From: Acidobacteriota bacterium
Lineage (GTDB): Bacteria > Acidobacteriota > UBA6911 > RPQK01 > CBDEGM01
Assembly: GCA_965237715.1 (NCBI GenBank)
Contig: CBDEGM010000003.1
Coordinates: 1,746,375 to 1,810,374, forward strand
Reading direction: 5' to 3'
Length of the DNA: 64,000 bases
Within the stretch, counting starts at the first letter, position 1. The number at the start of each line of letters is the position of its first letter. The translations under genes were made by a program, and so were the position numbers. A model generated the notes under the pieces. That model made no database searches. It saw only the letters and a program-made list of their open reading frames with translations, and had not been told where the DNA came from. Below are positions 19,262 to 57,466 of the stretch, in pieces.

Positions 19262-19603
19262 TCAAGCAGCGTCTCGATAGTAGTATCGAAGCAAGCCAAC
19301 GAGCCTGGGACGGCAACTTAATTCGCCGTCCTTGCGACCCACTTCATCTCCCGCATCAATGATTCGGTTCGCGAGTCCCTGATGATTCCGTTCGTGGTGA
19401 AAGTGCTCTCCGAACTCTCTCAAGGCCCGACGCAATGACGCTTCACCAAAGAAGATCATACGGTTGAGACATTCAGATTTCAGGGAGCGCATGAAGCGTT
19501 CCAGATGAGCATTGAGATTAGGACTCTTGGGAGGTAAGACTACCGCCTCGATGGAGGCTGCCCCAAACTCAGTTGAAAGTGAAGGGCGGTTCAGGTTGAG
19601 CAC
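19262..19603 (-). pseudogene. C-terminal part of the IS481-like transposase (separated from its N-terminus by the IS256-like insertion)
   Basis: Identical to the last 113 aa of the 359-aa transposase. Confidence 0.7.
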
Positions 19604-21782: not shown

Positions 21783-21927
21783 GGTTGATTAGATGCTCAC
21801 GTCAAGTGCTCAGACGCAAAGGGGGAAAACATTGGGGCTCAACCAAGGCTGACTTCTGTTTGCCGTGACGGTTACAACTTGTTGCACAATAGAGACTTGT
21901 GGGTCGGCTGAATATTTTGACCTTACG

Positions 21928-31556: not shown

Positions 31557-31684
31557 GTACTGTCAAGTTAAGTGGAATTCTCGGGTTTTGGAGGCGAAAT
31601 CGGTCGTCGGTCGAACGTAGAATCAACAATTTAGGGACTTGCCAAGGCGCTGATTAGGCACCAAACCGGTTAACTTGACAGTAC
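31557..31684. mobile_element. MITE copy c (128 bp, TA-flanked, variant-2 interior)
   Basis: TIRs GTACTGTCAAGTTAAG / GTTAACTTGACAGTAC. Confidence 0.6.
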
Positions 31685-34165: not shown

Positions 34166-34736
34166 TCAACCATCTTCTTCAACCACAACAAGGAAACTAG
34201 TTCGCCACCTCTTCGGTACATTTGCCCCCTTGATCTCTATGATGGACCGGAACTCCCCGCCGATGCTAGCGTGCCCGCTTACGCCGATTCATGCACCAAT
34301 GCCCTTCAACTAGTGTAGCGATCGGGACCCTCATTTCACTTGCGAAAAGTTTCCCCATTTTTCAAAAAGTTCACCCGTTCCACTTGTTAATCTTCCTAAC
34401 TCAACCATGTCAATTGGTTAGCAGAATCTCACCTGAATTTTTGGGGAAACTCCTGCAAGTGGCATGTACTAAAAAATCGGGGGAAAAAAAGGGAGGAAGG
34501 GCAGAGAAATTTAGGCGGACAAGCGGCCCTGAAAATGCATTATGCCGCGCGGGAGCGCAATGTCCGGAGCGACAGCATTTTACAACAGAGCATGAGCTGG
34601 CTACAATAACGGTCCGCTGAGATGGAGGCGTAAGCTTCCCCAGAAAAGACCCCATCCAAAAGTAGAATTTTCTGGCCCAAGGACAGAAGATGGGACAGGT
34701 TTCGCAGCAGATCGGGGTGACCGAGCAGACCTACTT

Positions 34737-40202: not shown

Positions 40203-43200
40203 TCAATCTCCGGAAAATGCTTCAAGCTGGCTTGAGTTCGGATGTATCCGATCCGTGTAGAGGTGCCGTTTAAAACGATTGTCGTCAAGGCGATAGATCG
40301 CAGTGTGACGCAAGCGGCCACCAAACCCAGAGCCCACTTGAATCCCGCCGTAGGCACTCTTCTCACCAGCGATCACCCAGATTGCTGAGAGATCTTGCCG
40401 GTTGAGCATCTGCAAAAATGCGTCGCGATCGACAAGAGCCCCTGCGGGGCCAGATTCAACGACGGACGGATCATAGAATGTGCCTTGTCCATCTGAGCCG
40501 ACAAAAATCAGCGATCTCCCACTCGACAGCCGAAGTCCCATTTTCTCGGCTAGCCAGGGAGCAGGTATTTTGAATATAATCGTCTGATCGATTGAGTAGT
40601 CATAGTCGCCGCTCTCGCATGCGTAGGAGGCGATCGTTGGGCGTGTTGGCACGGCGAAGGCCTGCTGATCGTCGTGCGAACTCCACCGTCCGAATTCGCT
40701 CATTTCTGGGTGCCAAGGATATTCTCCGAGGTGAAAATACCCAGAATAAAGTTCGATCTTTGGGAATGAGCTGGGATCTGTCAGAATTTTGTCCTGGAGA
40801 CTTTTGACCATCTTAGCTTGGTCTTTGCGGCGTACGACGATGCAGGTAAGCCGAAACCACGTTTCCCGCTGAATCTCCCTCTTCCCGGCCCGCACGCCAG
40901 CACCTTTCCATGTTGAAAATCCCGAGAGGGCAAGCCATCTTCGGCCCGTCTTTGGATTACACAAATCAATCAGAGCTTTATTGTTGATGATGTCGCTGTC
41001 ACTGTCCAGCCAAGCAAGACGCTCGTGGGGATCCACCGCGCGAAGCGTAGGATTGAAAGGCACCCACCACGTTTTGCGCCACTCGGCCCAACCCTTGTAA
41101 TAGGTCTGAGTAGTCAAGAAGGACGGATCGATATCGCATAGTCCGACTTCACGGGCTCCTCGATATAGGGGTGGTTCGTCATCGTCTTGTTTCCATGGAT
41201 TGTCTAAGAAGGCAAGATTGTCCGCCATGCGGGCTACAAGTTCTTGGAGTGCAAGCCATTGGTACTTCTTGCCGATGCGTTCGATCCTGTGGCCGTTTCG
41301 GTCGTAGCCGCAGAAGTGATTGTCGAAATCACCGAAGCGTTTCGATGTCCAACCCAGTTCATGGGCTCGCTTGCAGATCCATCGACGGCCCCAATGAACG
41401 TCGAAGTGTGCGGCTCGATCCGCAAAGAGTTTGTGCCGGAAAAAGTCCTTTGCTCGAACTCGGAAGTCTTCCCATTGGTCCGACGCCATCGTCTGCTGAA
41501 GAGCCCCCTCGGCGGCGGCCAACCGCTCCGCCTCCGGACTGGACTGATGGCCGTGAACATCCTTAATTCCCTCGGTGGTGCTAACATATTCCTTAAAGGC
41601 CACAAGTTGGTCTGCGGTTGCACTGGCGACAAATTCCTGTATCCAGGTTCTGCAAATGTCGAGCGAAGTCGGTAGCGGCATTGCTCCGATTTTTGCAGGA
41701 CTCCATTTGTTCACCTTGTGATCAACTACATATCGCGCAAAGTCGCCCTCATGGACGGTGGAGAATACAATCGCGTCGCCAACGGACCCGCGCCCATGAT
41801 CCTCGGTATAGCCCTTAATCAATTCGTCCGGTACCGGTTCGATAGGCCAAGGACTTTGATATGGCGGCCGTGCAAGCGCAAGGTCGATTGAGCTATCCAG
41901 TACGCCGCAGTACGCTGCGTACTCTACAATACATCGGGCATGGTCGCGCAGAAGCGCATTCGCCGGTGGTTTCCCGTTGGCAAAGACCGTGTCGAAAACC
42001 ACCTGGGCAAGTTTGCCGAGTCCCGCTTCCCGCGTTCCTTGAAGAGCGGCGCCATAGCAAGCAGCCAACAGACGCTCAAGAACATACGGATCATTCACAC
42101 TCACAAAGTCGCCCAGTAAACGAGCGGCGAGCAAAAGCCGCCGACTCAGCACGCTAGCAAGGGCCTTGGTAGCCTTATCCCTGACCTCCCGGTGCGATGT
42201 GGCAAGGAACCAAGTGAGCATTGTCGAAGCCAAGTACGCACGATCCCCGTCTATATGCTCAAGATCACTTTGAAGCGCCCAGGAAATCAGTGTCTTGACA
42301 GGCTCATCGAAGCCACGCTCTGCCAAATAGACCGACCAGCGCGCATCGCGCTCCGGCATCGTCATTCCCATGAGCCGCTTATGGACAAAGAGTGCATTGA
42401 ATTTGTTAGACGTCTCTGTGCTGATTGCGACAAGCAGGTCGGTCAACTCGTCCGCTTGAACCAAGCCTCGAACTAGTTCGAACGTGTGACTAGTAAAGTG
42501 AGACTGCTCACGCCAAAGGAGGCTATTCAGAAAAGCGTCCCGCACTGTATACGAAGCGTCAGATCCAACATCCAATATCTCAACGCGGGTCCGTTCCGGG
42601 AGTTGAATGGTCATCGCCTCGATGATTCCGGCGCGTTCATAATTCTCCGTCCCGAAAACACACTTATGGAGAGGCTGGTCGGCTTGAAAGGAACTAGCCA
42701 CATTGTGGGTATTGAGATGGTCATCGAGCAAGTGCGACGCTATAGCATGATCGCTGAAACGCTCGAACGTGAAGCGAACCATTTCAGCAAGCGATCCATC
42801 ATCTTGCCGCAAGGGTTCGACGGTGAGAAGACCTCCGTTTTCCAGCTGCGCTAGCAGACTCTTCTCAAGGCTTCCTCTCGAGTCGAGAACCGATTCAAAC
42901 AGAGTAACTACGTCGCTTTTCGCGGCATATCCTTTGCCGGCGCCCACGAGTAATTGCGCAAAGCTGGCGATAGCCTTTGATACGATTTCCAGATGAGGGT
43001 CGAGCCTCATTCCCCGGTTCAGCGACTGAGATACAGCCTCGTTGTAGAATTTAAAGATCGATGTGACGCCGCGCAAACCTCTAGGAAATTCGGTTTTTCC
43101 CTCCTTTTCCAAGGAGTCGCAGCACATTTTCAAGAAAAGCGGATTTTCAAACTCGGGAACGAGATTAGGTGCCCCAGGTCGGACCATTCCTCGTTTGTCG

Positions 43201-44702
43201 AGGTACACCTTCGCAGCTTCGCCCCCGTTCGCCGCAAAGCCTCTGTGATCGACACGGAGGAGCCGATCTTCATCTATGTCATCCGGGATCACATGCCGAA
43301 CATAGGTCGAGCGGCATGACACGATCACGCTGACTCGCGGGAAAGCCTCGAAAGTATTGAGAAAGGCTGCGAGACGCTGCGGCCAGACATTAACGCCGTT
43401 GCGTTCGTTCAAAGCATCGATGCACACAATTGCTCTCAAGCTCGCGGCCTGCGCTGCTGCGTCCAGACTCGCGAGGAAGTATTTGAACTGCACCGTTGGT
43501 GGATGATCGAGTTGATCGCGAATCTGCGGCCACAGTTCAGCGTCGATAAACGCTTCGCCGAGAAAGAGCAGCGCTGGCCCACCTTCGTGAAGTTGATGCT
43601 CCACGATGTCGGCAAGCAAATGGGACTTACCGATGCCGGCCGGGCCCTGAAGCAGAACTGCCTGCGCGTTGGTCAGCCGCCAACGGTTCGAAGCGAGGTC
43701 GCTCTTGATTTCATGCAGTACCTCCATCAGTTCATAGAGGGTATGTTGCACCAAGCGTTCGGACTTGATGCCCATACTGCCGGGCTTGGAAGGCGGAAGG
43801 TCGTAGGACCAACGAAGGGCCTTTCTAGCGAGGTCGAGACCGTCTGCAGCTGCGGCACTCCAATCGGTTACAGGATAGGGTTGGTCGGGGCCGATTGGAT
43901 CCCCGTCAAGCAAAGACGTCAGAGCACAAATTGCCTCATCCAGAGGATCGATATGGGTTTCGGCTTCCTCCGCACCTGTTCCGCGTATGGCTTTTACGGC
44001 GCCGCTTCCTTTTTCGTTGACGCGTATAAACCACCCATCGATCTGCCTCTGAAGCTCAGGATGGCGTGCGAAGGCGAGGAAGTCCTGTCTGATTGGGAGT
44101 TCAACGTTTGTTTCGGGAGTGTATCGGCTGCCCAGAGACGCCCTTGCCTTCCCAAATTGCTCCTTGAACCAAGTCGTTGTTAGGGCCGCGTGGCCGAACC
44201 AGTACAGGACTCGACCTGAGTGGGCGGGGTCTTCTCTGACCAGACGAAGGCTGAGTTCGCTCTTGCCCCACAACCTGATAGTCAGGTCACGCTTCTGCAA
44301 TGCGGCAAACTCTTCCCATTTCGTGCACCAAGCGTCCCACTTCTCTTGTGCGGTCTTGCCCTTGCCGGTTCGGGAATCGGGAAGATCGAACGGAAGGCAG
44401 ACGATGTAATTAACGAGATTCGGGTGCCTATTCAACGCCGTGCATATTGAAACGTCAAGCTGTGCTGTCAGGCTTGCATTCCAGCTAAAGAGGTACTTGG
44501 CTTGCCATCCGACTTCCGTCCCGTCTGCACGGCGGCGGTAGCATTCGACACCAGCGTCGCCGCCCCGGCCTTTCCGATAGAATTTTCCTTCCGTGGATGT
44601 TGGCTCCAAAGAGGCGAGTTGGCAACACATTTCCTCAAACCCGGCGTGACGGCTTCCGTCAACCGGGCGAATCTTCTCGAAATTGATGTCTGGTAGGCTC
44701 AT
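40203..44702 (-). CDS. Avs4-like antiviral STAND NTPase: N-terminal Mrr-type PD-(D/E)xK nuclease, P-loop STAND ATPase and a long helical C-terminal sensor (1499 aa)
   Basis: Mrr-cat-like GGDAGVEC..(13)..GWQAKY; Walker A GPAGIGKSHLL; Walker B IVCIDALNE; sensor-1 VSVIVSCRST; about 900 aa of C-terminal helical region. Confidence 0.55.
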   Translation of the reverse strand: MSLPDINFEKIRPVDGSRHAGFEEMCCQLASLEPTSTEGKFYRKGRGGDAGVECYRRRADGTEVGWQAKYLFSWNASLTAQLDVSICTALNRHPNLVNYIVCLPFDLPDSRTGKGKTAQEKWDAWCTKWEEFAALQKRDLTIRLWGKSELSLRLVREDPAHSGRVLYWFGHAALTTTWFKEQFGKARASLGSRYTPETNVELPIRQDFLAFARHPELQRQIDGWFIRVNEKGSGAVKAIRGTGAEEAETHIDPLDEAICALTSLLDGDPIGPDQPYPVTDWSAAAADGLDLARKALRWSYDLPPSKPGSMGIKSERLVQHTLYELMEVLHEIKSDLASNRWRLTNAQAVLLQGPAGIGKSHLLADIVEHQLHEGGPALLFLGEAFIDAELWPQIRDQLDHPPTVQFKYFLASLDAAAQAASLRAIVCIDALNERNGVNVWPQRLAAFLNTFEAFPRVSVIVSCRSTYVRHVIPDDIDEDRLLRVDHRGFAANGGEAAKVYLDKRGMVRPGAPNLVPEFENPLFLKMCCDSLEKEGKTEFPRGLRGVTSIFKFYNEAVSQSLNRGMRLDPHLEIVSKAIASFAQLLVGAGKGYAAKSDVVTLFESVLDSRGSLEKSLLAQLENGGLLTVEPLRQDDGSLAEMVRFTFERFSDHAIASHLLDDHLNTHNVASSFQADQPLHKCVFGTENYERAGIIEAMTIQLPERTRVEILDVGSDASYTVRDAFLNSLLWREQSHFTSHTFELVRGLVQADELTDLLVAISTETSNKFNALFVHKRLMGMTMPERDARWSVYLAERGFDEPVKTLISWALQSDLEHIDGDRAYLASTMLTWFLATSHREVRDKATKALASVLSRRLLLAARLLGDFVSVNDPYVLERLLAACYGAALQGTREAGLGKLAQVVFDTVFANGKPPANALLRDHARCIVEYAAYCGVLDSSIDLALARPPYQSPWPIEPVPDELIKGYTEDHGRGSVGDAIVFSTVHEGDFARYVVDHKVNKWSPAKIGAMPLPTSLDICRTWIQEFVASATADQLVAFKEYVSTTEGIKDVHGHQSSPEAERLAAAEGALQQTMASDQWEDFRVRAKDFFRHKLFADRAAHFDVHWGRRWICKRAHELGWTSKRFGDFDNHFCGYDRNGHRIERIGKKYQWLALQELVARMADNLAFLDNPWKQDDDEPPLYRGAREVGLCDIDPSFLTTQTYYKGWAEWRKTWWVPFNPTLRAVDPHERLAWLDSDSDIINNKALIDLCNPKTGRRWLALSGFSTWKGAGVRAGKREIQRETWFRLTCIVVRRKDQAKMVKSLQDKILTDPSSFPKIELYSGYFHLGEYPWHPEMSEFGRWSSHDDQQAFAVPTRPTIASYACESGDYDYSIDQTIIFKIPAPWLAEKMGLRLSSGRSLIFVGSDGQGTFYDPSVVESGPAGALVDRDAFLQMLNRQDLSAIWVIAGEKSAYGGIQVGSGFGGRLRHTAIYRLDDNRFKRHLYTDRIHPNSSQLEAFSGD

Positions 44703-45115
44703 TCAGGTGACGCCGCAGCCAGCGTTGGCTCGCTCAGTACTTTGGGTGACTCGGGTGGTTTGTCCGACATTTTTTGAGCGATCGTGGGGATATCCTGCTG
44801 GATTTTCTCCGTGCTCGGTGTCAACGCTTCCTGCAGCAGTGCATCAAGCAGGCGGCGGCGGGTGTCGTCGCCGCTGGCGAGGCTTGCCTCCAGCCGGTCG
44901 CATAGGATCATTAGCTCATCGACCTTGACGACGATGCGGTGCTGCTCCGGGAGGGGTGGGAGGGGGAATGGCGAGTTCGCAAAATATTCGATTGGCACCC
45001 GCTTCTGTCCAGCGGTGCCGGTCATTCTAGAAATGCCCGTCTCAATGAAGTGTGGGCACTTGAGGAAGACGATGATGTAATCCGGATTGACGATGAGCGG
45101 TCGAACAATGTGCAA
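44699..45115 (-). pseudogene. Type I restriction-modification HsdS C-terminal fragment; its stop overlaps the ATG of the Avs-like gene
   Basis: SPFPLPPLPEQHRIVVKVDELMILCDRLEASL; upstream part replaced by MITE copy d. Confidence 0.55.
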
Positions 45116-45123
45116 TTCGGTAC

Positions 45124-45245
45124 TGTCAAGTTAACCGATTTGGTGTCTAATCAGCGCCTCGGCCACTCCCTAAGTTGTTGATTCTACATTCGACCGCCGA
45201 CCGTTTCCGCCTCCAAAACCCGAGAACTCCACTTAACTTGACAGT
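45124..45245. mobile_element. MITE copy d (122 bp, variant 2)
   Basis: TA-CTGTCAAGTTAAC...GTTAACTTGACAG-TA. Confidence 0.6.
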
Positions 45246-45499
45246 ACCAGTTACCGGGTTCATCCTTGAAATTCGCTCCGATCGGATGAATCCAATAGTC
45301 GTACGTCTTACCCGAAGCGCCTTCCCACTTAATGATGTCAGCCATCGATTTTTCCCTCTGAACTCAACTACTACTAGTTGTCATTTTCCACCGAAGCTCC
45401 CGGCGCTCGGGGGCGAGGTGTCGCGGATCACCTTCACCGGCCCGCTCAGGCCGGAGCGGGCTTCGGCGATGGGAACCAAGCCGTCTTGTTGTTTACGCT

Positions 45500-45991
45500 T
45501 CATGCGACCCCCGCAATCCGTTGGAGCAGTCGATTCCCAATTTCCCGCAAGTAGGTCAGATACCTTTCGCGTAAGTCGTCAGAATCTTGGACGGCCTTCG
45601 TATCGAGCTTCCGACACTCAGCAGCTACCTGGTTGTGGTTGAATTCCATCGGTTCGGATGAGTGGGCAAATTTGTTTCGTATTCGCCGGACAGTATGCAG
45701 ATCTTTTCTAATTTTGCGATCATATAGGCCGAGCGCGAACGCAATATCGACCTTTGCCTTGAAAGTCGAAAGCGGTCCATAAGTCTTGAATATTTCGTCT
45801 ATTTCGTCCCGGCGATTCAACGCAACAAATCTTGTCATGATCGCATCACGTAGCCTGTCTTCGAAATACGCTGCGGCAAGAATAGCGGCAGCCCTGTCGC
45901 TCTCTTCGGCAAGTGCGATCTGGTAGTCATAGGCACGCTCGATGATTTGTCTGCGCGTTTTTTCTTCCTTACTCATTTTCCAGCGGCACAC
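45500..45991 (-). CDS. DUF4145-like (HEPN-superfamily) protein
   Basis: HTVRRIRNKFAH (Rx4-6H) in an all-helical 163-aa protein. Confidence 0.45.
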   Translation of the reverse strand: MCRWKMSKEEKTRRQIIERAYDYQIALAEESDRAAAILAAAYFEDRLRDAIMTRFVALNRRDEIDEIFKTYGPLSTFKAKVDIAFALGLYDRKIRKDLHTVRRIRNKFAHSSEPMEFNHNQVAAECRKLDTKAVQDSDDLRERYLTYLREIGNRLLQRIAGVA

Positions 45992-46230
45992 ACTCCATGT
46001 GGTGCAACGCCTGGAGGCGTGGCTTCGCGGAGCGCCTGGGCCGGGCCGCCCAAGCCGAACACGACTTCCCCGATCGGAACTAACTCGCCGTGTTGACGCT
46101 GCATGGCTTTATTCTCCCATGCGGCTCAGACAAGACAGGCGGCGGGAGAAGGGTTACAGGCCCAGGTGGCCGTCCTGGGAGCGCCCGCCCCCGTTTTAAC
46201 GGGTCTGGGACGGTCGTGCTGATAATGGCG

Positions 46231-47058
46231 TTAGATACCAGCATGCACGACTCCTTCCAATTGTTGCGCCATTAGGATCATCTTCGCGGGCGGGCCTTGG
46301 AAGACGATGCCCGCTTTCTCAAGTTTCATCTCGTCCAGGTAGCGCCATCCTTCAAACACGAGTTTGGTTCCCTCCCTTTTGAGAAATGCCTCGACGAAGC
46401 CCAGTGACTCGCCTTGCCGGGTGGCCTGAGCGAAGCGGCCCCACTCTGTGGACAGCAATTCTTCTGGATACCAGACCTCCGGGTTGCATGGAAATCCATT
46501 GATCATCTCCGCATGCGTCGGTTTGCAGATCCGAGTGATGTTCCTGGGACCCAACGCGGCATCCAATTTGACCACGACATCCCGCACCGTGGGGGATCCC
46601 TCGTGCAGCAGCTTAATTTGATACTGGTGGAAGGCTTCGTTATATTCCGCCTTCCGTTCGCTGTAATCGGGCGGCAGTTCCCGATGCCGACCGAGGTTTA
46701 GCGTCGCCTGCCCCGCCGCCTTACCGATGCGGTTTGCCGTCAAATCCCCCAACACTCCGTCCTGATAGGCGAGTTCGGCCTTGGTGCGGCTCTGATCATC
46801 CCACTTCATGAACAGCTCGCCGAGGTCGTGGCCCCAGGCCTCTTTTCGCGGAATGGCTCTCGGCCCCTTTTTGAGGTACACTTTCAGCAGCAGTTCCATG
46901 GTTTCATGCGCGGCGGTGTAGGCGGCGCTGATGAATCCCAGGTTGTACGGTGGGTACATATCCTGGAGATGTGATGCGGACAGTACTGCCGCCGCGTCTA
47001 GTTTGCTAGTGGCGTAAGCAAATGCTGCCGTATTACTAACTCCACCCGGATCACTCAT
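46231..47058 (-). CDS. Hypothetical 275-aa protein with a possible N-terminal HEPN-like motif (RKEAWGH)
   Basis: Rx5H motif in a helical N-terminal region; otherwise no recognisable family. Confidence 0.3.
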   Translation of the reverse strand: MSDPGGVSNTAAFAYATSKLDAAAVLSASHLQDMYPPYNLGFISAAYTAAHETMELLLKVYLKKGPRAIPRKEAWGHDLGELFMKWDDQSRTKAELAYQDGVLGDLTANRIGKAAGQATLNLGRHRELPPDYSERKAEYNEAFHQYQIKLLHEGSPTVRDVVVKLDAALGPRNITRICKPTHAEMINGFPCNPEVWYPEELLSTEWGRFAQATRQGESLGFVEAFLKREGTKLVFEGWRYLDEMKLEKAGIVFQGPPAKMILMAQQLEGVVHAGI

Positions 47059-47185
47059 TTCTCTGGCGACTCTCCCTCCATCGGTAGAATCTGCTGCTTC
47101 TCCGATGGATTGGATCTCACCCGCTGCGCCTTCTCGAAAGTCACGTCTTCGGCCAGGGGGTTGTCTACGCGCTTCCCGCCCAAGG

Positions 47186-47274
47186 GTACTGTCAAGTTAA
47201 CCGATTTGGTGTCTAATCAGCGCCTCGGCCACTCCCTAAGTTGTTGATTCTACATTCGACCGCCGACCGTTTCC
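47186..47274. mobile_element. MITE copy e (variant 2), 3'-truncated by insertion of IS481-like copy 1
   Basis: Identical to copy d up to ...CCGACCGTTTCC, then the IS IRL. Confidence 0.55.
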
Positions 47275-48691
47275 CGTAAGGTCAAAATATTCAGCCGACC
47301 CACAAGTCTCTATTGTGCAAAAAGTTGTAACCGTCACGGCAAACAGAAGTCAGCCTTGGTTGAGCCCCAATGTTTTCCCCCTTTGCGTCTGAGCACTTGA
47401 CGTGAGCATCTAATCAACCATGAACTTCGTGCTCAGGCCCTGGCAGCAGCTGCTCCTGATCTTGGCCGGTTGGATCAACAGAGACCAGCAGGACGCGATC
47501 GAGTATCTTTTGACTGAGAATCAGGTACTCAGAGAAAAGCTCGGCAAGGGCCGCATTCTGCTCAACGACGGCCAGCGTCGACGCTTGGCCGTCAAGGGCA
47601 AGGTGCTGGGCCGAAAAAGCCTCGGCAAACTGGCCAAGATCGTCAGGCCCGACACGCTTCTGCGCTGGCATCGAGAGCTTATCGCTCGCAAGTGGGATCA
47701 CTCAGACAAGAGGCAATCCGTTGGCCGGCCACGCATTCGACAACAGATTGTGGACTTGGCTCTGCGCATGGCTCAGGAGAATCCTAGCTGGGGCTATGAC
47801 CGTATCCAGGGTGCTTTAGCCAACCTGGGCTTCCACATTTCTGACACCACGGTTGGCAACATTCTCAAAGCCCACGGCATCGAGCCAGCTCCAGAGCGCG
47901 AGAGCCGCACGGCCTGGCGTACCTTCCTTGCTGCTCACTGGGATTCGATCGCAGCCGCCGACTTTACGACCGTTGAGGTCTGGACTCGGTCAGGACTGGT
48001 CACGTTCTACGTCCTTGTGGTGATGCATCTAAAGACGCGGCGCATTGAAATCGCGGGTGCGACGCCTCACCCCAACTCCGAATGGATGCAGCAAGCCGGA
48101 AGGAACCTGACCGGCTGTGTCGACGGCTTTTTCCGCAGCTCGGCCCACGTCATCCTTGACCGTGACACGAAGCACTTGCCGTTGCGTCAGATCTTGAAGT
48201 CCAGCGACATCGAGGCGGTAGTCTTACCTCCCAAGAGTCCTAATCTCAATGCTCATCTGGAACGCTTCATGCGCTCCCTGAAATCTGAATGTCTCAACCG
48301 TATGATCTTCTTTGGTGAAGCGTCATTGCGTCGGGCCTTGAGAGAGTTCGGAGAGCACTTTCACCACGAACGGAATCATCAGGGACTCGCGAACCGAATC
48401 ATTGATGCGGGAGATGAAGTTGGTCGCAAGGACGGCGAATTAAGTTGCCGTCCCAGGCTCGGTGGCTTGCTTCGATACTACTATCGAGACGCTGCTTGAA
48501 TTCGGATACACTCCATAAGACTGGGGAGAAGGTCGAGTCAGCACCGCTGTGCCGGAGCGACGACCTCACACCGGGAGCCCGTTTCCAAAAGCTGGTTTCT
48601 CAACGGAAATCGCCTGAGATTCCGATGCTCGCACCCCATGAGCCCTTCTATTCTAAGGATCCGCTGCCCGACCGAATATTTTTACCTTACG
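47275..48691 (+). mobile_element. IS481-like IS copy 1 (1417 bp), imperfect 25-bp IRs CGTAAGGT(C/A)AAAATATTC(A/G)G(C/T)CG
   Basis: Ends defined by comparing five full copies. Confidence 0.85.
47420..48499 (+). CDS. IS481-like rve-type DDE transposase (359 aa)
   Basis: HTH N-terminus, integrase core with ...SPNLNAHLERFMRSLKSE. Confidence 0.85.
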   Translation: MNFVLRPWQQLLLILAGWINRDQQDAIEYLLTENQVLREKLGKGRILLNDGQRRRLAVKGKVLGRKSLGKLAKIVRPDTLLRWHRELIARKWDHSDKRQSVGRPRIRQQIVDLALRMAQENPSWGYDRIQGALANLGFHISDTTVGNILKAHGIEPAPERESRTAWRTFLAAHWDSIAAADFTTVEVWTRSGLVTFYVLVVMHLKTRRIEIAGATPHPNSEWMQQAGRNLTGCVDGFFRSSAHVILDRDTKHLPLRQILKSSDIEAVVLPPKSPNLNAHLERFMRSLKSECLNRMIFFGEASLRRALREFGEHFHHERNHQGLANRIIDAGDEVGRKDGELSCRPRLGGLLRYYYRDAA

Positions 48692-50705: not shown

Positions 50706-51950
50706 GTCTGCTCCTGATCTTGGCCGGTTGGATCAACAGAGACCAGCAGGACGCGATCGAGTATCTTTTGACTGAGAATCAGGTACTCAGAGAAAAGCTC
50801 GGCAAGCGCCGCATTCTGCTCAACGGCGACCAGCGTCGACGCTTGGCCGTCAAGGGCAAGGTGCTGGGCCGAAAAAGCCTCGGCAAACTGGCCAAGATCG
50901 TCAGGCCCGACACGCTTCTGCGCTGGCATCGAGAGCTTATCGCTCGCAAGTGGGATCACTCAGACAAGAGGCAATCCGTTGGCCGGCCACGCATTCGACA
51001 CAGATTGTGGACTTGGCTCTGCGCATGGCTCAGGAGAATCCTAGCTGGGGCTTATGACCGTATCCAGGGTGCTTTAGCCAACCTGGGCTTCCACATCTCT
51101 GACACCACGGTTGGCAACATTCTCAAAGCCCACGGCATCGAGCCAGCTCCAGAGCGCGAGAGCCGCACGGCCTGGCGTACCTTCCTTGCTGCTCACTGGG
51201 ATTCGATCGCAGCCGCCGACTTTACGACCGTTGAGGTCTGGACTCGGTCAGGACTGGTCACGTTCTACGTCCTTGTGGTGATGCATCTAAAGACGCGGCG
51301 CATTGAAATCGCGGGTGCGACGCCTCACCCCAACTCCGAATGGATGCAGCAAGCCGGAAGGAACCTGACCGGCTGTGTCGACGGCTTTTTCCGCAGCTCG
51401 ACCCACGTCATCCTTGACCGTGACACGAAGCACTTGCCGTTGCGTCAGATCTTGAAGTCCAGCGACATCGGGGCGGTAGTCTTACCTCCCAAGAGTCCTA
51501 ATCTCAATGCTCATCTGGAACGCTTCATGCGCTCCCTGAAATCTGAATGTCTCAACCGTATGATCTTCTTTGGTGAAGCGTCATTGCGTCGGGCCTTGAG
51601 AGAGTTCGGAGAGCACTTTCACCACGAACGGAATCATCAGGGACTCGCGAACCGAATCATTGATGCGGGAGATGAAGTTGGTCGCAAGGACGGCGAATTA
51701 AGTTGCCGTCCCAGGCTCGGTGGCTTGCTTCGATACTACTATCGAGACGCTGCTTGAATTCGGATACACTCCATAAGACCGAGGAGAAGGTCGAGTCAGC
51801 ACCGCTGTGCCGGAGCGACGACCTCACACCGGGAGCCCGTTTCCAAAAGCTGGTTTCTCAACGGAACTCGCCTGAGATTCCGATGCTCGCACGCCCATGA
51901 GCCCTTCTATCCTAAGGATCCGCTGCCCGACCGAATATTTTTACCTTACG
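50706..51950 (+). mobile_element. IS481-like copy 2, lacking about 195 bp of its 5' end, with frameshifts in the transposase
   Basis: Homology starts inside the ORF; same [18 protein letters not shown] frame-shift signature as copy 6. Confidence 0.7.
50708..51757 (+). pseudogene. Degenerate IS481-like transposase
   Basis: Two compensating indels and E-to-G changes. Confidence 0.6.
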
Positions 51951-51951
51951 C

Positions 51952-53369
51952 CGTAAGGTCAAAATATTCAGCCGACCCACAAGTCTCTATTGTGCAACAA
52001 GTTGTAACCGTCACGGCAAACAGAAGTCAGCCTTGGTTGAGCCCCAATGTTTTCCCCCTTTGCGTCTGAGCACTTGACGTGAGCATCTAATCAACCATGA
52101 ACTTCGTGCTCAGGCCCTGGCAGCTGCTGCTCCTGATCTTGGCCGGTTGGATCAACAGAGACCAGCAGGACGCGATCGAGTATCTTTTGACTGAGAATCA
52201 GGTACTCAGAGAAAAGCTCGGCAAGGGCCGCATTCTGCTCAACGGCGACCAGCGTCGACGCTTGGCCGTCAAGGGCAAGGTGCTGGGCCGAAAAAGCCTC
52301 GGCAAACTGGCCAAGATCGTCAGGCCCGACACGCTTCTGCGCTGGCATCGAGAGCTTATCGCTCGCAAGTGGGATCACTCAGACAAGAGGCAATCCGTTG
52401 GCCGGCCACGCATTCGACAACAGATTGTGGACTTGGCTCTGCGCATGGCTCAGGAGAATCCTAGCTGGGGCTATGACCGTATCCAGGGTGCTTTAGCCAA
52501 CCTGGGCTTCCACATTTCTGACACCACGGTTGGCAACATTCTCAAAGCCCACGGCATCGAGCCAGCTCCAGAGCGCGAGAGCCGCACGGCCTGGCGTACC
52601 TTCCTTGCTGCTCACTGGGATTCGATCGCAGCCGCCGACTTTACGACCGTTGAGGTCTGGACTCGGTCAGGACTGGTCACGTTCTACGTCCTTGTGGTGA
52701 TGCGTCTAAAGACGCGGCGCATTGAAATCGCGGGTGCGACGCCTCACTCCAACTCCGAATGGATGCAGCAAGCCGGAAGGAACCTGACCGGCTGTGTCGA
52801 CGGCTTTTTCCGCAGCTCGGCCCACGTCATCCTTGACCGTGACACGAAGCACTTGCCGTTGCGTCAGATCTTGAAGTCCAGCGACATCGAGGCGGTAGTC
52901 TTACCTCCCAAGAGTCCTAATCTCAATGCTCATCTGGAACGCTTCATGCGCTCCCTGAAATCTGAATGTCTCAACCGTATGATCTTCTTTGGTGAAGCGT
53001 CATTGCGTCGGGCCTTGAGAGAGTCCGGAGAGCACTTTCACCACGAACGGAATCATCAGGGACTCGCGAACCGAATCATTGATGCGGGAGATGAAGTTGG
53101 TCGCAAGGACGGCGAATTAAGTTGCCGTCCCAGGCTCGGTGGCTTGCTTCGATACTACTATCGAGACGCTGCTTGAATTCGGATACACTCCATAAGACTG
53201 GGGAGAAGGTCGAGTCAGCACCGCTGTGCCGGAGCGACGACCTCACACCGGGAGCCCGTTTCCAAAAGCTGGTTTCTCAACGGAAATCGCCTGAGATTCC
53301 GATGCTCGCACGCCCATGAGCCCTTCTATCCTAAGGATCCGCTGCCCGACCGAATATTTTTACCTTACG
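51952..53369 (+). mobile_element. IS481-like copy 3, separated from copy 2 by a single base (head-to-tail tandem)
   Basis: ...ttaccttacg-c-cgtaaggtcaaaat... Confidence 0.85.
52097..53176 (+). CDS. IS481-like transposase
   Basis: 359 aa. Confidence 0.85.
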   Translation: MNFVLRPWQLLLLILAGWINRDQQDAIEYLLTENQVLREKLGKGRILLNGDQRRRLAVKGKVLGRKSLGKLAKIVRPDTLLRWHRELIARKWDHSDKRQSVGRPRIRQQIVDLALRMAQENPSWGYDRIQGALANLGFHISDTTVGNILKAHGIEPAPERESRTAWRTFLAAHWDSIAAADFTTVEVWTRSGLVTFYVLVVMRLKTRRIEIAGATPHSNSEWMQQAGRNLTGCVDGFFRSSAHVILDRDTKHLPLRQILKSSDIEAVVLPPKSPNLNAHLERFMRSLKSECLNRMIFFGEASLRRALRESGEHFHHERNHQGLANRIIDAGDEVGRKDGELSCRPRLGGLLRYYYRDAA

Positions 53370-53492: not shown

Positions 53493-55778
53493 CTAGGTCA
53501 GGTTCCCGACAATTTTGAGGGTTCGCTTGACGTAGTTCGAGAGTTCGATGTCATCGATCGACTCAGTCGCTGCGTTGGGATTCTCGCCATGGTGGTAGCG
53601 TTTAGTATATTCGTTCAAATCCTCAAGGTCCTCCGCGAGGGCCGAGAGCTGGTGCACCTTTCCTTCCGTCCTGATCCTGCCGATCATAGTGCCGAGGGTG
53701 TCACCGTCGGGGAACTGGCTCGGGTATAGATTTCGGCAGTAGCTTTCGAGCACGGGGCGAATTTTCTGAACGACATCGCGCGCATTGCCCCCCCTGTCGC
53801 TATAGTACCGCTGGAGCTTTTCCACGTCGAATCGGTAACGAGCCTTGACTGTCTCCTCTATATCCCATTCGGCAATCGTCGTATTAATTTCGCCGACGCG
53901 AACAAGCTGGACCGTCTTGCGGTCCGCCAGGGGGAGTTGATCCCAAACGAGTTTTAGGAAATACGGATCATGGGACAGAAGGACGACCTGCGCGCAGCGA
54001 TCGCCGCAGCGCTTAATCTCAATGGCAGTCTGTGTTCGGCGGAAGGCATCCTGACTGGTGAAAGGATCGTCCAGGACGACGGTCTTCTGGGCGCGGGATG
54101 GGTCCTGCTCAAGCTGTGCAAAGAAAAAGGCCAGTGCGAGCGTGCTGCGGTCGCCCGCACTGAGCGTGTTCTTGAAGCTAGGCTCAGATAGCAGTGTGTC
54201 CGGTTTGCCGAGGGCGACAGGCATTTCGTTAATCAGGATTTCATAGCTCGAACTTGGGATTCTACCTTTGTAGTCATGAGTCAGCCCTGAGATGCGGAAG
54301 CCCGTGTTGAACCGGTCGAGATAGCGATTGATGCTCCGCCCATACTGCGTGATAACGCTTTCGGTGTGCCCATCCAACTCTGCCTTGGCATCGGCCTTTT
54401 GGCCTTCGAGACCCCTTTTCTCGGCAAGTAAGTCTCGATAACTCTGGCAGGCCGCCCCAACAGCCTGAGTGTGGCGCGTCTTCTGCGCGTTGAGCCGGGT
54501 CAGTTCTGCCGCGACGGCCGCTACATCCGCAGCAGCAGCCTGTTCCTTCTTGGTCGCGATGAGTCCGTTTATCGTGGCGATGGATTGGTTGTAGGCTACG
54601 ATATTTCGCGTCAATATGGTAAAGGCTGATTCTGCCGTCACAAAATTATCGTCCGCGGCTAGCGTTTCGAGAGGAGCAGCTTTCTTGCGGTTCAGCAACG
54701 ATAGTGCGGCTGACCGCATATTCGCGAGGATGGCGGACAAATCAGTTTGCGAAGGAAGCCCCAGCGCTTCAAACGTGCAGTAGTCGTTCCAAAACGTGGC
54801 GACTTGGCCATTTTTTTCAAACGTGTTCCGGATTGTGGCAATGCCGGCATCGCCAAATACGTTATCGACCTGTTCGGCCAGCTTGGCAACCTCGTCTTTC
54901 AGGCTGTGGTAAGCCTCGCTGAAATAAGCCTTGTAGCTATCGATCAAGACAAGTCCGGTAAGATCCTGCCCGCAGAAAGGGCAGTCGTCATCGACGACAT
55001 AAGATAGGCCTTCCGAAAGCCACATCTCTCCGCGATCTTGCATATGGTGCGTGCGCATATGATCCGCGATCTGCCGTTCGGCATCGGCGGCGATGTCTTC
55101 GACCGTTTTGGCCAGTCCTTGTGAGAAATCGCGGGGCAGTTCTGGTAAAGAAACAGTGCTCAGGCCCTCGTGCCGGGCTATCTGGTCAGCTTTCTTTACG
55201 GCGTCTAAGTCGCCCTGCTTGGCGTTAATCCTGGCGTCAATATTGTTATCTGCTGCGAGTGTGAGAAATTCCTCGCTGGTCATGCCTTGTGGGATGTGGT
55301 TCTGGACAACTGCACGAGCCGCTTTGATCGCTCGGGATTTCTCACGGATCTGGGCATCAAGATCCTGAACACGTCGTGCAAGGACCACGCCACGGCTGCC
55401 GATTATCACCTGGTAGAGATTGCGCCGCTGCTGTGTATCGACAGCATTCCCAACATGGACGTTCTCGGCAATGTAAGTCTCATCAAAAACGGCAAGGGCG
55501 GCCATGGGCGCACTCCATGCGCCATTCTGAAAATTGGCCGGGCCGGTCTCAAGCAGGAACTCGACTTCAGGTTCATCGGGATAGCCTAAGGTCTTTCGCC
55601 CTAGGATGTAGGCGGGTTCACCCCACTGTAGGGAACGCAGGATCGCGCAGAGCGTCGTCTTGCCGCGGCCGTTCTCGGCAAAAACAAGAGTTCCCGCTTT
55701 AAACGTGACATCGTCGGCCGCAAAGCACTTTTGAAAGCGCCCTATATTCTTGATCGAGATGATCTTTTTCAGGGTCAT
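53493..55778 (-). CDS. RloC/PrrC-like AAA_13 ABC ATPase with a zinc-hook (CPFC) coiled-coil insert and a C-terminal HEPN-like region; candidate anticodon nuclease
   Basis: Walker A FAENGRGKTTL; CxxC hook DDDCPFCGQD in the coiled coil; signature LSAGDRS; Walker B VVLDDPFTSQD; H-loop LSHD; C-terminal GRIRTEGKVH; the true start is MTLKKIISIKNIGRF at 55778 (the ORF track extends it to 56111). Confidence 0.5.
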   Translation of the reverse strand: MTLKKIISIKNIGRFQKCFAADDVTFKAGTLVFAENGRGKTTLCAILRSLQWGEPAYILGRKTLGYPDEPEVEFLLETGPANFQNGAWSAPMAALAVFDETYIAENVHVGNAVDTQQRRNLYQVIIGSRGVVLARRVQDLDAQIREKSRAIKAARAVVQNHIPQGMTSEEFLTLAADNNIDARINAKQGDLDAVKKADQIARHEGLSTVSLPELPRDFSQGLAKTVEDIAADAERQIADHMRTHHMQDRGEMWLSEGLSYVVDDDCPFCGQDLTGLVLIDSYKAYFSEAYHSLKDEVAKLAEQVDNVFGDAGIATIRNTFEKNGQVATFWNDYCTFEALGLPSQTDLSAILANMRSAALSLLNRKKAAPLETLAADDNFVTAESAFTILTRNIVAYNQSIATINGLIATKKEQAAAADVAAVAAELTRLNAQKTRHTQAVGAACQSYRDLLAEKRGLEGQKADAKAELDGHTESVITQYGRSINRYLDRFNTGFRISGLTHDYKGRIPSSSYEILINEMPVALGKPDTLLSEPSFKNTLSAGDRSTLALAFFFAQLEQDPSRAQKTVVLDDPFTSQDAFRRTQTAIEIKRCGDRCAQVVLLSHDPYFLKLVWDQLPLADRKTVQLVRVGEINTTIAEWDIEETVKARYRFDVEKLQRYYSDRGGNARDVVQKIRPVLESYCRNLYPSQFPDGDTLGTMIGRIRTEGKVHQLSALAEDLEDLNEYTKRYHHGENPNAATESIDDIELSNYVKRTLKIVGNLT

Positions 55779-56048
55779 CCGCCTGCTTCCGTATACAGGG
55801 TAGCACGCAGAAACGTATAACCGTATACGGTAGAGTTCAGGCGCTTCCCGTCTCGACCAGCTCTGGTCGGAGCTTGTATTCCCCGTAGAGCACAACGTTG
55901 TCCCACTGCTGGAGTCTCCGCTTTGAGTACGGACTCCTCGAGGTGACGGAAAGACGAATCCGGTCCGGCGATAAACGAGGTGGACCCGCAGCTCGTAGGC
56001 GAGGCTCTGGAGGCTTCTGCCACTCTCGTTGCCCGACCTCGCGAATCC

Positions 56049-57466
56049 CGTAAGGTCAAAATATTCAGCCGACCCACAAGTCTCTATTGTGCAACAAGTT
56101 GTAACCGTCACGGAAAACAGAAGTCAGCCTTGGTTGAGCCCCAATGTTTTCCCCCTTTGCGTCTGAGCACTTGACGTGAGCATTTAATCAACCATGAACT
56201 TCGTGCTCAGGCCCTGGCAGCAGCAGCTCCTGATCTTGGCCGGTTGGATCAACAGAGACCAGCAGGACGCGATCGAGTATCTTTTGACTGAGAATCAGGT
56301 ACTCAGAGAAAAGCTCGGCAAGGGCCGCATTCTGCTCAACGACGGCCAGCGTCGACGCTTGGCCGTCAAGGGCAAGGTGCTGGGCCGAAAAAGCCTCGGC
56401 AAACTGGCCAAGATCGTCAGGCCCGACACGCTTCTGCGCTGGCATCGAGAGCTTATCGCTCGCAAGTGGGATCACTCAGACAAGAGGCAATCCGTTGGCC
56501 GGCCACGCATTCGACAACAGATTGTGGACTTGGCTCTGCGCATGGCTCAGGAGAATCCTAGCTTGGGCTATGACCGTATCCAGGGTGCTTTAGCCAACCT
56601 GGGCTTCCACATCTCTGACACCACGGTTGGCAACATTCTCAAAGCCCACGGCATCGAGCCAGCTCCAGAGCGCGAGAGCCGCACGGCCTGGCGCACCTTC
56701 CTTGCTGCTCACTGGGATTCGATCGCAGCCGCCGACTTTACGACCGTTGAGGTCTGGACTCGGTCAGGACTGGTCACGTTCTACGTCCTTGTGGTGATGC
56801 ATCTAAAGACGCGGCGCATTGAAATCGCGGGTGCGACGCCTCACCCCAACTCCGAATGGATGCAGCAAGCCGGAAGGAACCTGACCGGCTGTGTCGACGG
56901 CTTTTTCCGCAGCTCGGCCCACGTCATCCTTGACCGTGACACGAAGCACTTGCCGTTGCGTCAGATCTTGAAGTCCAGCGACATCGAGGCGGTAGTCTTA
57001 CCTCCCAAGAGTCCTAATCTCAATGCTCATCTGGAACGCTTCATGCGCTCCCTGAAATCTGAATGTCTCAACCGTATGATCTTCTTTGGTGAAGCGTCAT
57101 TGCGTCGGGCCTTGAGAGAGTTCGGAGAGCACTTTCACCACGAACGGAATCATCAGGGACTCGCGAACCGAATCATTGATGCGGGAGATGAAGTTGGTCG
57201 CAAGGACGGCGAATTAAGTTGCCGTCCCAGGCTCGGTGGCTTGCTTCGATACTACTATCGAGACGCTGCTTGAATTCGGATACACTCCATAAGACTGGGG
57301 AGAAGGTCGAGTCAGCACCGCTGTGCCGGAGCGACGACCTCACACCGGGAGCCCGTTTCCAAAAGCTGGTTTCTCAACGGAAATCGCCTGAGATTCCGAT
57401 GCTCGCACGCCCATGAGCCCTTCTATCCTAAGGATCCGCTGCCCGACCGAATATTTTTACCTTACG
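56049..57466 (+). mobile_element. IS481-like copy 4, inserted into an IS903-group copy
   Basis: Flanked on the right by the IS903-group transposase 3' region. Confidence 0.85.
56194..57273 (+). CDS. IS481-like transposase
   Basis: 359 aa. Confidence 0.85.
   Translation: MNFVLRPWQQQLLILAGWINRDQQDAIEYLLTENQVLREKLGKGRILLNDGQRRRLAVKGKVLGRKSLGKLAKIVRPDTLLRWHRELIARKWDHSDKRQSVGRPRIRQQIVDLALRMAQENPSLGYDRIQGALANLGFHISDTTVGNILKAHGIEPAPERESRTAWRTFLAAHWDSIAAADFTTVEVWTRSGLVTFYVLVVMHLKTRRIEIAGATPHPNSEWMQQAGRNLTGCVDGFFRSSAHVILDRDTKHLPLRQILKSSDIEAVVLPPKSPNLNAHLERFMRSLKSECLNRMIFFGEASLRRALREFGEHFHHERNHQGLANRIIDAGDEVGRKDGELSCRPRLGGLLRYYYRDAA

Follow-up and report, generated by a model that had tools for sequence, protein, structure and literature searches.

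Two HEPN-fold genes between direct repeat copies in a bacterial defence island: probably a decayed mosaic rather than a mobile cassette

The stretch of 64,000 nucleotides analysed here (the window) contains two direct copies of a short repeat, designated d and e, which enclose 1.94 kb holding two intact minus-strand genes for HEPN-fold proteins of 158 and 275 amino acids. We conclude that this interval is probably a decayed mosaic within an IS-rich defence island and not a mobile cassette. The first-pass annotation had proposed that a pair of MITE copies mobilised or reshuffled a two-gene cassette. Reshuffling of the region was borne out, but its visible joint is a common RepA_C 5' segment and not the repeat, and the two genes are no cassette, being unlinked elsewhere, with unrelated family profiles (hhalign probability, 6%). 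At other loci neither gene accompanied the other, and in most cases the repeat was absent too, an outcome that the annotation itself had named as speaking against its proposal; since repeat pairs also surround ordinary genes, mobilisation by the repeat pair is unsupported. On our reading the interval shows repeats and insertion sequences breaking up a defence island, with intact effector genes stranded among stumps; as stated, this is of little significance.

Assembly of the interval

The major data for the origin of the interval were matches to related loci, all of them metagenome assemblies in which chimeric joins are possible; the window region itself is also present on an independent record. 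Positions 46206-47184 match locus L009 at 94%, the match ending at the edge of copy e, while positions 45481-46133 match L010 at 90% and positions 45461-46054 match L008 at 95%. Homology to L009 at 46067-46139 and the L010 block (45481-46133) overlap only in a repA 5' segment.

Three pieces are proposed. The first would be the 3' end of a methyltransferase gene together with the 275-aa gene that normally follows it, presumably an orphaned restriction-modification accessory. The second, putatively plasmid derived, would comprise a RepA_C 5' stump, the 158-aa HEPN gene and another RepA_C 5' stump, and the third a 5' stub left from a small gene of unknown kind. The first two pieces may have been joined by recombination in a RepA_C 5' segment carried by both ancestors, and the stump upstream of the 158-aa gene (small43) is likely to be the joint between the two modules. 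The methyltransferase gene would then have acquired one copy (e) of a dispersed repeat of about 130 bp, and the junction of stub and hsdS another (d), after which an IS481-like element would have cut copy e, with replacement of its far flank.

Repeat copies and flanking genes

Copy d (45119-45248, plus strand; formerly placed at 45124-45245) is a complete palindromic element of 130 bp with terminal inverted repeats of 16-17 bp, GGTACTGTCAAGTTAA(C). An IHF-like box (minus strand, AATCAACAACTTA) lies at its centre, and as single-stranded DNA the element gave a more stable fold than 200 of 200 shuffles (z = -3.75). Copy e (47185-47274, plus strand) is identical to positions 45119-45208 of copy d over 90 of 90 bp and in the same orientation, with 0 matches in shuffles. 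The enclosure of the interval by two same-orientation copies was therefore upheld, with the correction that e is not whole and retains only its first 90 bp. Its truncation is due to an IS481-like insertion sequence of 1417 bp with a 359-aa transposase (47275-48691, plus strand), which begins at 47275 and cuts the repeat at its position 90. Including this one, the window has eight copies or fragments of the element, which was assigned from the copy map, an rve_3 match and a match to the NCBIfam IS481/IS3 transposase that falls short of the curated cut-off. A search after the insertion sequence for the 39 bp that copy e lacks found them absent, and the outer flank of e is lost.

Gene fragments had been reported on both flanks of copy d, and both were found. 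On the left lies the 3' part of hsdS (44699-45115, minus strand), a type I restriction specificity gene (PADLOC Specificity_I, 2.5e-21; Pfam Methylase_S, 6.8e-4) cut on its 5' side by the repeat. Neither the rest of hsdS nor hsdM/hsdR was seen among the large window ORFs scanned or beside repeat copy b. The hsdS stop is overlapped by ATGA by the start of Avs2 (40203-44702, minus strand), an antiviral STAND NTPase of 1499 aa (PADLOC Avs2, E = 0, 1705 bits; weak Pfam NACHT and AAA_16 matches), which is context outside the enclosed segment. On the inner side, copy d cuts a small, otherwise unknown gene of which a 5' stub is left (45247-45345, minus strand; about 33 native codons, MADIIKWEGASGKTYDYWIHPIGANFKDEPGNW). 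The corresponding ORF of 53 codons (45184-45345) ends inside the repeat, which itself encodes the codons beyond about 33. The only relative found was a 34-aa protein, 79% identical, and there was no Pfam, NCBIfam or PADLOC match. A promoter and terminator scan of 44600-47400 gave no more sites than shuffles, and an Rfam search of 45100-47300 (E < 1) gave one chance match only and no structured RNA in the small-ORF segments.

The repeat family has five copies in the window, occurs at 47 metagenome loci and has further copies in L008, L022, L023 and L087. Its members are about 120-140 bp long, with terminal inverted repeats of 17 bp, and are short, non-coding and multi-copy, as MITEs are. In 40 of 57 copies a central box matching WATCAANNNNTTR, a candidate IHF site, occupies a constant position. 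No copies were found in viral contigs. The nearest named relatives, both of the repeat and of the module of MtlR-like gene and repA, are in Terriglobia and Bryobacterales MAGs. Identity with integron attC sites was rejected on inspection, the GTTAAC boxes lying 11 nt inside the ends, a misfit to the R''/R' consensus.

When 40 distinct repeat copies were scanned for target-site duplications (1-9 bp, many offsets), direct repeats of at least 3 bp were absent from all 36-38 copies with both flanks, whatever the offset tested. The sole signal was a palindromic GTAC, which lies inside the inverted repeat. No autonomous parent with the repeat's ends was found in the window or in the fetched loci, and the ends of the IS5-like and IS481-like elements differ from those of the repeat. 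These data bear directly on composite mobilisation, in which a transposase would have used the outer ends of the two repeats to move the 1.9 kb as a unit into the hsdS locus. We regard such a transfer as highly improbable. It could explain the identity and shared orientation of the copies, the intact inverted repeats of d and the truncated gene to the left of d, and the spread of the family argues that it was mobile at some time. The missing duplications and parent element count against it, as do the loss of the outer end of copy e and the failure to find the whole repeat-bounded unit at any other site, including all of the related loci. Furthermore, the inner flanks of both copies are truncated genes, and homologues run past the break in L009 and L086, which indicates that the repeats cut a pre-existing arrangement.

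The 158-residue protein and the RepA_C stumps

The first of the two minus-strand genes (45500-45976) reads 163 aa from a GTG start. Initiation at the ATG at position 45976 is more likely and gives 158 aa; the gene call on the source contig also begins there. Its product has the four-helix up-down HEPN fold, and the HEPN fold anticipated for both proteins was supported. The protein had been described as DUF4145-like with an Rx4-6H motif. The motif was verified as R100-N-K-F-A-H105, with R100, N101 and H105 invariant in 56 aligned relatives, and it matches the Rx4-6H endoRNase pattern; the RNxxxH and N-terminal ESDR motifs are both invariant in the family and intact here. The DUF4145 assignment (PF13643) was abandoned, the score being 17.9 bits against a gathering threshold of 23.1. 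Some relatives carry a precomputed PF13643 match, from which DUF4145 was deduced to be a neighbouring family and not that of this protein. The best sequence and fold match was MtlR/YggD (PF05068; PDB 3brj, 6kcr, 3c8g), although Pfam MtlR was passed only marginally (27.4 bits; gathering threshold, 25.2) and the NCBIfam MltR subfamily scored 28 bits against a cut-off of 149.

The invariance of R100-N-x3-H105 suggests that the protein is probably a trigger-activated RNase. By analogy with HepS, the 'HEPN Solo' abortive-infection anticodon nuclease of the Gifsy-1 prophage (PDB 9oij/9oik), it would most likely be inactive until triggered and then cut tRNA or other RNA, leading to abortive infection or replicon stabilisation; both the activity and the trigger are predicted. 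Five distant relatives were present in viral contigs, and the plasmid collection also held only distant ones (27-37% identity), some of them annotated as MltR regulators. In L010, a plasmid-like contig that also bears ParA and RepA_C fragments, there is a close relative of the 158-aa module.

Small ORFs adjoin the gene on both sides. The one already annotated, small40 (45381-45503, minus strand; about 30 codons, MKRKQQDGLVPIAEA), was confirmed to overlap the stop of the 158-aa gene with its ATG (ATGA). The other, small43, was added in this analysis, as was the methyltransferase remnant described below; it spans 45973-46139 (minus strand), comprising an ORF at 45973-46104 whose stop overlaps the 158-aa ATG (ATGA) and a conserved 35-nt leader, and is paralogous to small40. 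Both ORFs matched by tblastn to the N-termini of full RepA_C replication-initiator ORFs in L020 and L022, the first of which matches Pfam RepA_C (PF04796) at 1.3e-14. Only about 30-35 N-terminal codons are left, without the RepA_C domain, and the ORFs are accordingly stumps and not members of that family. Being RepA_C N-termini, they represent neither a novel family of peptides nor an antitoxin of universal occurrence.

The small ORF upstream of the 158-aa gene could instead be a domesticated partner, an antitoxin or translational-coupling leader made from a RepA N-terminus, in a two-gene HEPN toxin-antitoxin-like module. The window and L010 both retain the ATGA overlap with the HEPN gene, and L008 retains it in part. 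When the codons of the window and L010 copies were compared by hand, 6 synonymous and 10 non-synonymous differences were counted, two Leu-to-Leu changes by double substitution among them, which hints at coding constraint. However, the three loci with the RepA-derived ORF are close relatives (HEPN proteins 88-93% identical), so that shared ancestry is enough to explain the conservation. It speaks for a partner that in another lineage (L020 and L022) the HEPN start is overlapped by ATGA by a different small ORF, which encodes a hydrophobic peptide. Against a partner role, no homologous upstream ORF appeared in the upstream translations read among 27 genome loci, tblastn found the RepA N-terminus in only 2 of the 27 (L020 and L022) and there downstream of the HEPN gene, and the same stump precedes unrelated genes (a 261-aa gene in L008; position 15848 of the window). 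HepS, moreover, works alone. A partner role was therefore judged distinctly unlikely.

The stumps also bear on a Campbell-type integration, in which a small RepA_C plasmid with a repeat copy, one or both HEPN genes and repA would have recombined with a chromosomal repeat in hsdS, the plasmid part then decaying. Copies d and e are 100% identical whereas copy b is only 91% identical to d, so that a single duplicating event fits better than two independent insertions; this counts against the mosaic and, with a duplication of exactly repeat length, for integration. The RepA_C stumps inside the interval and the relative on the plasmid-like contig L010 point the same way, as does a Terriglobia MAG (L022), where two direct copies identical at 131 of 131 positions surround higA, an MtlR-like gene and then repA_C in the same relative orientation. 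Identical direct pairs are, however, also found around ordinary chromosomal genes (L054), and direct pairs flank ordinary genes in two further metagenomes (L075 and L082). The fetched parts of the plasmid-like contig L010/L011 have no repeat copy, and the 5' half of hsdS, expected beyond copy e, was not seen among the large ORFs scanned in the window. As the interval also encloses the repeat-cut methyltransferase remnant and the stub gene, the supposed plasmid would already have been a mosaic. Integration of this kind is considered unlikely.

A broader proposal, which we hold to be very unlikely, is that the elements of about 130 bp are portable recombination sites by which RepA_C replicons with solo-HEPN genes enter and leave chromosomes, the direct pairs in the window and in the Terriglobia MAG being integration junctions. 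A repeat family without target-site duplications would fit recombination rather than cut-and-paste transposition.

The 275-residue protein and its methyltransferase remnant

In the decayed mosaic that we favour, the 275-aa gene (46231-47058, minus strand) belongs to the other module. Its product has a classical HEPN-fold core split by an insertion of about 140 residues. There was no Pfam match at E <= 1, PF05168 included, and the relation to that family is seen only in the fold and in a short common motif. The family is very rare (40 clusters among 1.84 billion representatives), with no relatives in the plasmid collection or in viral contigs. H51, E55, K59, H77 and R239 are invariant, and D78, L79 and Y240 are conserved in at least 90% of members. 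An N-terminal Rx5H motif had been noted; R71x5H77 is indeed present and H77 is invariant, but R71 is not conserved and the motif is thus not a family feature. The invariant R239 has no histidine 4-6 residues later (RYLDE). The protein keeps the HEPN core without a catalytic histidine at the canonical site. It is probably an RNA- or nucleotide-binding accessory of a methyltransferase or restriction partner, or else a non-canonical nuclease.

The partner is represented by the last 43 codons of a DNA methyltransferase gene (47055-47184, minus strand; ORF, 47055-47195), homologous to the C terminus of a 542-aa N6_N4_Mtase in L086 and to a 103-aa remnant in L009. The remnant overlaps the 275-aa start by ATGA and is cut exactly at the left end of copy e, its DNA homology to L009 and L086 ending at 47184/47183. 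The association was replicated in 4 of 10 other fetched loci, in which a 275-aa homologue lies directly downstream of a methyltransferase gene (L086, overlapping; L088; L089) or, in L009 as in the window, of its 3' remnant. The methyltransferases belong to two different classes. As its partner is missing, the protein may be inert here.

No support was obtained for treating the two HEPN genes as a toxin-antitoxin pair. In other loci the 275-aa gene was never beside an MtlR-like gene, nor the reverse. The suggested comparison with HEPN-MNT or HEPN-toxin pairs revealed no such pairing, and the genes adjoining the two HEPN genes carried no nucleotidyltransferase Pfam family, whether in the window or in the related loci.

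Comparison with known systems

Neisseria (Correia/NEMIS) and enterobacteria (ERIC/IRU) carry short palindromic repeats that are dispersed and have an IHF site at their centre; Correia elements duplicate TA at their target. The present repeat is like them in its size of about 130 bp, terminal inverted repeats, non-coding nature, high copy number and often intergenic position. It differs in sequence, in having no detectable target-site duplication and in that the window copies lie inside broken genes. As a by-product of this analysis, a widespread repeat family whose IHF-like box keeps a fixed central position and which shows no target-site duplication could be useful.

The 158-aa protein resembles HepS in being a single-domain HEPN protein of similar size, with R100, N101 and H105 at the HepS positions, encoded on mobile DNA beside other defence genes. 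It is shorter (158 aa versus 212 aa) and linked to plasmids or repA rather than to a prophage; the tetramer, activation by a phage protein and cleavage of tRNA anticodons are known for HepS only. A HepS-like solo HEPN clade that keeps these three residues and travels beside plasmid repA genes would extend, beyond prophages, a defence type described only in 2026. MtlR has been placed in the HEPN superfamily, some members looking like active RNases although the motif is lost in a large fraction of the family (Anantharaman et al. 2013, PMC3710099). At the aligned motif positions Vibrio MtlR (3brj) has neither residue and E. coli MtlR (6kcr) has the arginine without the histidine, whereas in the 158-aa family the motifs are invariant. 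Since, unlike MtlR/YggD, the gene also has no mannitol-utilisation Pfam family among the gene calls of the window region, L008 and L010, a repressor role is unlikely.

With classical HEPN proteins of the PF05168 type (TT1696, 1ufb; AF0298, 2hsb; TTHA0636, 1wwp; HI0074, 1jog; sacsin, 3o10) the 275-aa protein shares the late arginine R239, and with a PF05168-like neighbour protein in L002 the helix motif 'E..LK ... HDL..LF'. The 1wwp/2hsb group is sometimes clustered with restriction-modification operons, and some members have a D replacing the motif H and a conserved H elsewhere (Anantharaman et al. 2013, PMC3710099); R239-x2-D242 plus H51 and H77 fit this description. Differences from the classical proteins are the lack of a Pfam match, the insertion that splits the core, the lack of an MNT partner and the rarity of the family, which we propose as a candidate restriction-modification accessory. 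HEPN genes tied to restriction-modification systems are already known from at least 16 clades, the published logic being that the restriction-modification partner holds the HEPN effector in check (PMC3710099). Compared with PrrC and RloC, the 275-aa protein has no ABC ATPase domain and no canonical Rx4-6H, and its partner, destroyed in the window, is a methyltransferase or type IIG-like enzyme rather than a type I complex. The linkage itself is alike, with the gene immediately downstream of methyltransferases and, in the window, in a region that carries hsdS and Avs2.

Organization of the repeat-enclosed interval

The interval between repeat copies d and e was found to be an ordinary mosaic of gene stumps in a defence island, in which two genes were left intact, one of HepS/MtlR-type HEPN and the other an orphan of a rare, methyltransferase-linked HEPN-fold family. 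The first-pass annotation was largely correct in recognizing the repeat pair and both HEPN genes; its reading of these as a cassette mobilized by the repeats was not supported.

The same orientation of the two copies was borne out by an exact 90-bp direct repeat at 45119-45208 and 47185-47274, which had zero matches in shuffles. Copy d is complete, being a 130-bp element (45119-45248) with terminal inverted repeats GGTACTGTCAAGTTAA(C). Copy e comprises only the first 90 bp of the element because an IS481-like element starts at 47275. The missing 39 bp of copy e was not found beyond the IS end at 48691, and the far flank was therefore deduced to have been replaced.

All genes between the copies are on the minus strand. 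In the direction from e to d, the first feature is the 43-codon 3' end of a methyltransferase gene (47055-47184), with a stop overlapping the start of the 275-aa gene (46231-47058) by ATGA. After a 126-bp gap follows the 43-codon ORF small43 (45973-46104), whose stop overlaps the start of the 158-aa gene (45500-45976) by ATGA, and the stop of the latter is overlapped, again by ATGA, by the start of the 40-codon ORF small40 (45381-45503). Last is a 53-codon ORF (45184-45345) with only ~33 native codons, the rest lying inside repeat d. Immediately left of copy d is the 3' part of hsdS and then Avs2 (1499 aa, within 40203-45115), whose start overlaps the truncated hsdS stop by ATGA. Avs2 seems to have been lodged at the tail of a type I restriction-modification operon, the remainder of which is absent from the window.

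The 275-aa HEPN-fold protein

The HEPN call was right for both genes, which belong to different clades, one without the catalytic motif; no relation between the two families was detectable by profile comparison. The 275-aa protein adopts a HEPN fold with a ~140-residue insertion. It had no Pfam or NCBIfam match and only a chance-level PADLOC match (E 0.04); the family is not modelled in PADLOC. Relatives were rare, with only 66 among 5.8 billion clusters and only 40 representative clusters among 1.84 billion, many of them fragments. The invariant residues include H51, E55, K59, H77, and R239, while conservation of D78, L79, and Y240 is 90% or higher. The proposed N-terminal Rx5H motif did not hold up, as R71 is variable across the family, and the canonical Rx4-6H is missing, the residues after R239 being YLDE.

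The family is found directly 3' of two classes of DNA methyltransferase (N6_N4_Mtase and N6_Mtase + Type_ISP_C), overlapping or within 10 nt. Among the fetched loci, the upstream gene at L086 (5380-7828; 84% identity to the window protein) is an overlapping 542-aa N6_N4 DNA methyltransferase. At L088 (1661-5834; 68%) it is a 1109-aa N6_Mtase + Type_ISP_C protein, type IIG-like by PADLOC and 10 nt away, and at L089 (1681-5834; 62%) an overlapping enzyme of the L088 type split into 951 and 176 aa. At L009 (7693-8828; 93%) an overlapping 103-codon C-terminal methyltransferase remnant is present. The 43-codon remnant of the window is homologous to the methyltransferase remnants or C termini of L009 and L086. 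DNA homology of these two loci to the window stops at 47184 and 47183, respectively, the exact left end of copy e, while their methyltransferase sequence runs on past this breakpoint. Copy e thus interrupts a gene that was already in place. The 275-aa family is possibly an unrecognized accessory of restriction-modification systems.

Elsewhere, the homologues of L002-L004 lie beside a PF05168-like HEPN protein within a TIR-containing cluster, that of L006 is close to CBASS genes, and that of L005 is among housekeeping genes. The HEPN protein in L002 (5098-5844; 248 aa) has a zinc-ribbon-like N terminus and a PF05168-like HEPN motif (E 0.002) and is encoded immediately upstream of the 275-aa homologue, so that two HEPN-type genes stand in tandem; their cluster also encodes a CAP12-PCTIR TIR protein.

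The 158-aa MtlR/HepS-type protein

The 158-aa protein was narrowly above the Pfam MtlR threshold (27.4 versus 25.2 bits), with sub-threshold matches to DUF4145, RiboL-PSP HEPN, and Abi_2. Its family profile matched the MtlR structures 3brj (4.9e-7) and 6kcr and the HepS structure 9oij (4.2e-4). Among the 128 relatives found, an alignment of 56 had D27, R28, R100, N101, and H105 invariant. HepS acts in abortive infection as a stand-alone HEPN protein, and its own R100, N101, and H105 form the site cutting the tRNA anticodon loop, after opening of the tetramer by a phage tail-tip protein (PMC13043305). MtlR was placed within the HEPN superfamily by Anantharaman et al., with the RNase motif kept in some members and lost in repressor-type members (PMC3710099). 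Since the motif is kept and no mannitol genes are near the 158-aa gene, a HepS-like RNase role is the best inference.

Close relatives lie in L010/L011, a plasmid-like contig bearing ParA and RepA_C fragments, and in L008, another IS-rich island; the 275-aa gene is absent from both. Among species genomes, 27 from Acidobacteriota, Latescibacterota, and Proteobacteria have more distant relatives, as do five viral contigs and a small number of plasmids.

RepA_C stumps and the joining of the two genes

The small ORFs, 39% identical to each other, matched a third window copy at 15848 and copies in L008, L009, and L010. They also matched the N termini of two longer ORFs, of 215 and 283 aa, in L020 and L022; at these two loci the MtlR-like gene is followed directly by a full repA gene, and the L020 ORF matches Pfam RepA_C at 1.3e-14. 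Judged by these matches, small40 and small43 are 5' stumps of RepA_C replication-initiator genes. The stumps carry a conserved 35-nt leader with an abrupt start at TCTTGTCTG, and stump and leader precede various genes. Within 15848-18359, the third stump, which adjoins an IS6 copy, opens a 112-codon ORF with a frame shift relative to true RepA after ~71 codons; 5 nt after it is a 722-aa ORF with no Pfam match and internal repeats at 17391-17464 and 17826-17899. In L010 (8474-8630), only 7 codons are left of the RepA start that lies downstream of the HEPN gene, and these run straight into a second RepA 5' stump plus leader in inverted orientation. The repA 5' segment is therefore a recurring feature of rearrangement joints at several loci.

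The window shares 46206-47184 (94%) and 46067-46139 with L009, 45481-46133 (90%) with L010, and 45461-46054 (95%) with L008. The L009-like and L010-like blocks overlap solely in the repA 5' segment, 46067-46133. In the simplest reading, two repA-bearing ancestors would have recombined within this segment, joining the 275-aa and 158-aa modules. The notion of a two-gene HEPN cassette is not supported, as no 275-aa homologue was found beside an MtlR-like gene and close relatives of the 158-aa gene occur without the 275-aa gene.

Possible contribution of the direct repeat pair

Mobilization of the interval by the d/e pair would be consistent with the identity of d and e, whereas copy b (31557-31684), inverted and adjoining a truncated IS copy, shares 91% identity with d. 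A similar pair, 131/131 identical, lies in the Terriglobia MAG L022 (2381-2511 and 6018-6148), in the same relative orientation as in the window. Between its copies are higA, a small ORF for a hydrophobic peptide, an MtlR-like HEPN gene with a frameshift, and a RepA_C gene split by a 305-aa gene, an arrangement that parallels the window interval. However, all two-copy contigs among the metagenome controls have direct orientation, with pair identities of 100%, 95%, and 96%, and flank other genes: one that we take to be hspQ-like (L054), a 475-aa gene (L075), and a 983-aa ORF, presumably a peptidase gene (L082). Direct pairs a few kilobases apart are therefore normal, given the element density. 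As, in addition, genes are truncated at the inner flanks of the interval and the unit is absent from other loci, mobilization by the pair is not supported. Campbell-type integration of a repA plasmid via repeat homology, which the L022 arrangement would also fit, is an unlikely alternative.

The window is very rich in mobile elements (IS481-like, IS6, IS5-like, IS256-like of the Mutator family, and one group II intron). The 1417-bp IS481-like element has eight copies or fragments within 64 kb, 99-100% identical and in both orientations (19069-19553, 20988-21927, 30337-31555, 47275-48691, 50708-51950, 51952-53369, 56049-57466, and 60289-61707), two of them back to back at 50708-53369. These are ample substrate for inversions and deletions. 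The group II intron (32362-34170; Rfam D1-D4, 112 bits; domain V/VI, 60 bits) lies ~700 bp from copy b and carries a reverse-transcriptase/maturase ORF (32844-34112). Between two IS481-like copies is a large minus-strand AAA_13 ATPase gene (53493-56111; Pfam 3.4e-30); the AAA_13 domain is characteristic of defence ATPases, including those of the RloC/PrrC-like type.

The repeat family

Repeat elements are 120-140 bp with ends GGYACTGTCAAGTTAAC. Besides d and e, the window has three copies, namely b and the pair a and c, which belong to a second subfamily whose ends do not differ. A two-ended pattern search gave 47 loci in JGI metagenomes and zero in viral contigs, and further copies were present in L008, L022 (two), L023, and L087. 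No autonomous parent element was seen in the window or the fetched loci, and no target-site duplication of at least 3 bp was found at any offset for copies with both flanks among 40 distinct copies. A match to WATCAANNNNTTR, which we take to be the IHF consensus, was observed in 40 of 57 copies (window 45119-45248, L008, L022, L023, and L039-L087), at position 66 in 39 and position 65 in 1, against a shuffle mean of 0.37. The IHF-consensus match and the lack of target-site duplication are unusual for a MITE, and the WATCAANNNNTTR match is reminiscent of Correia-type elements.
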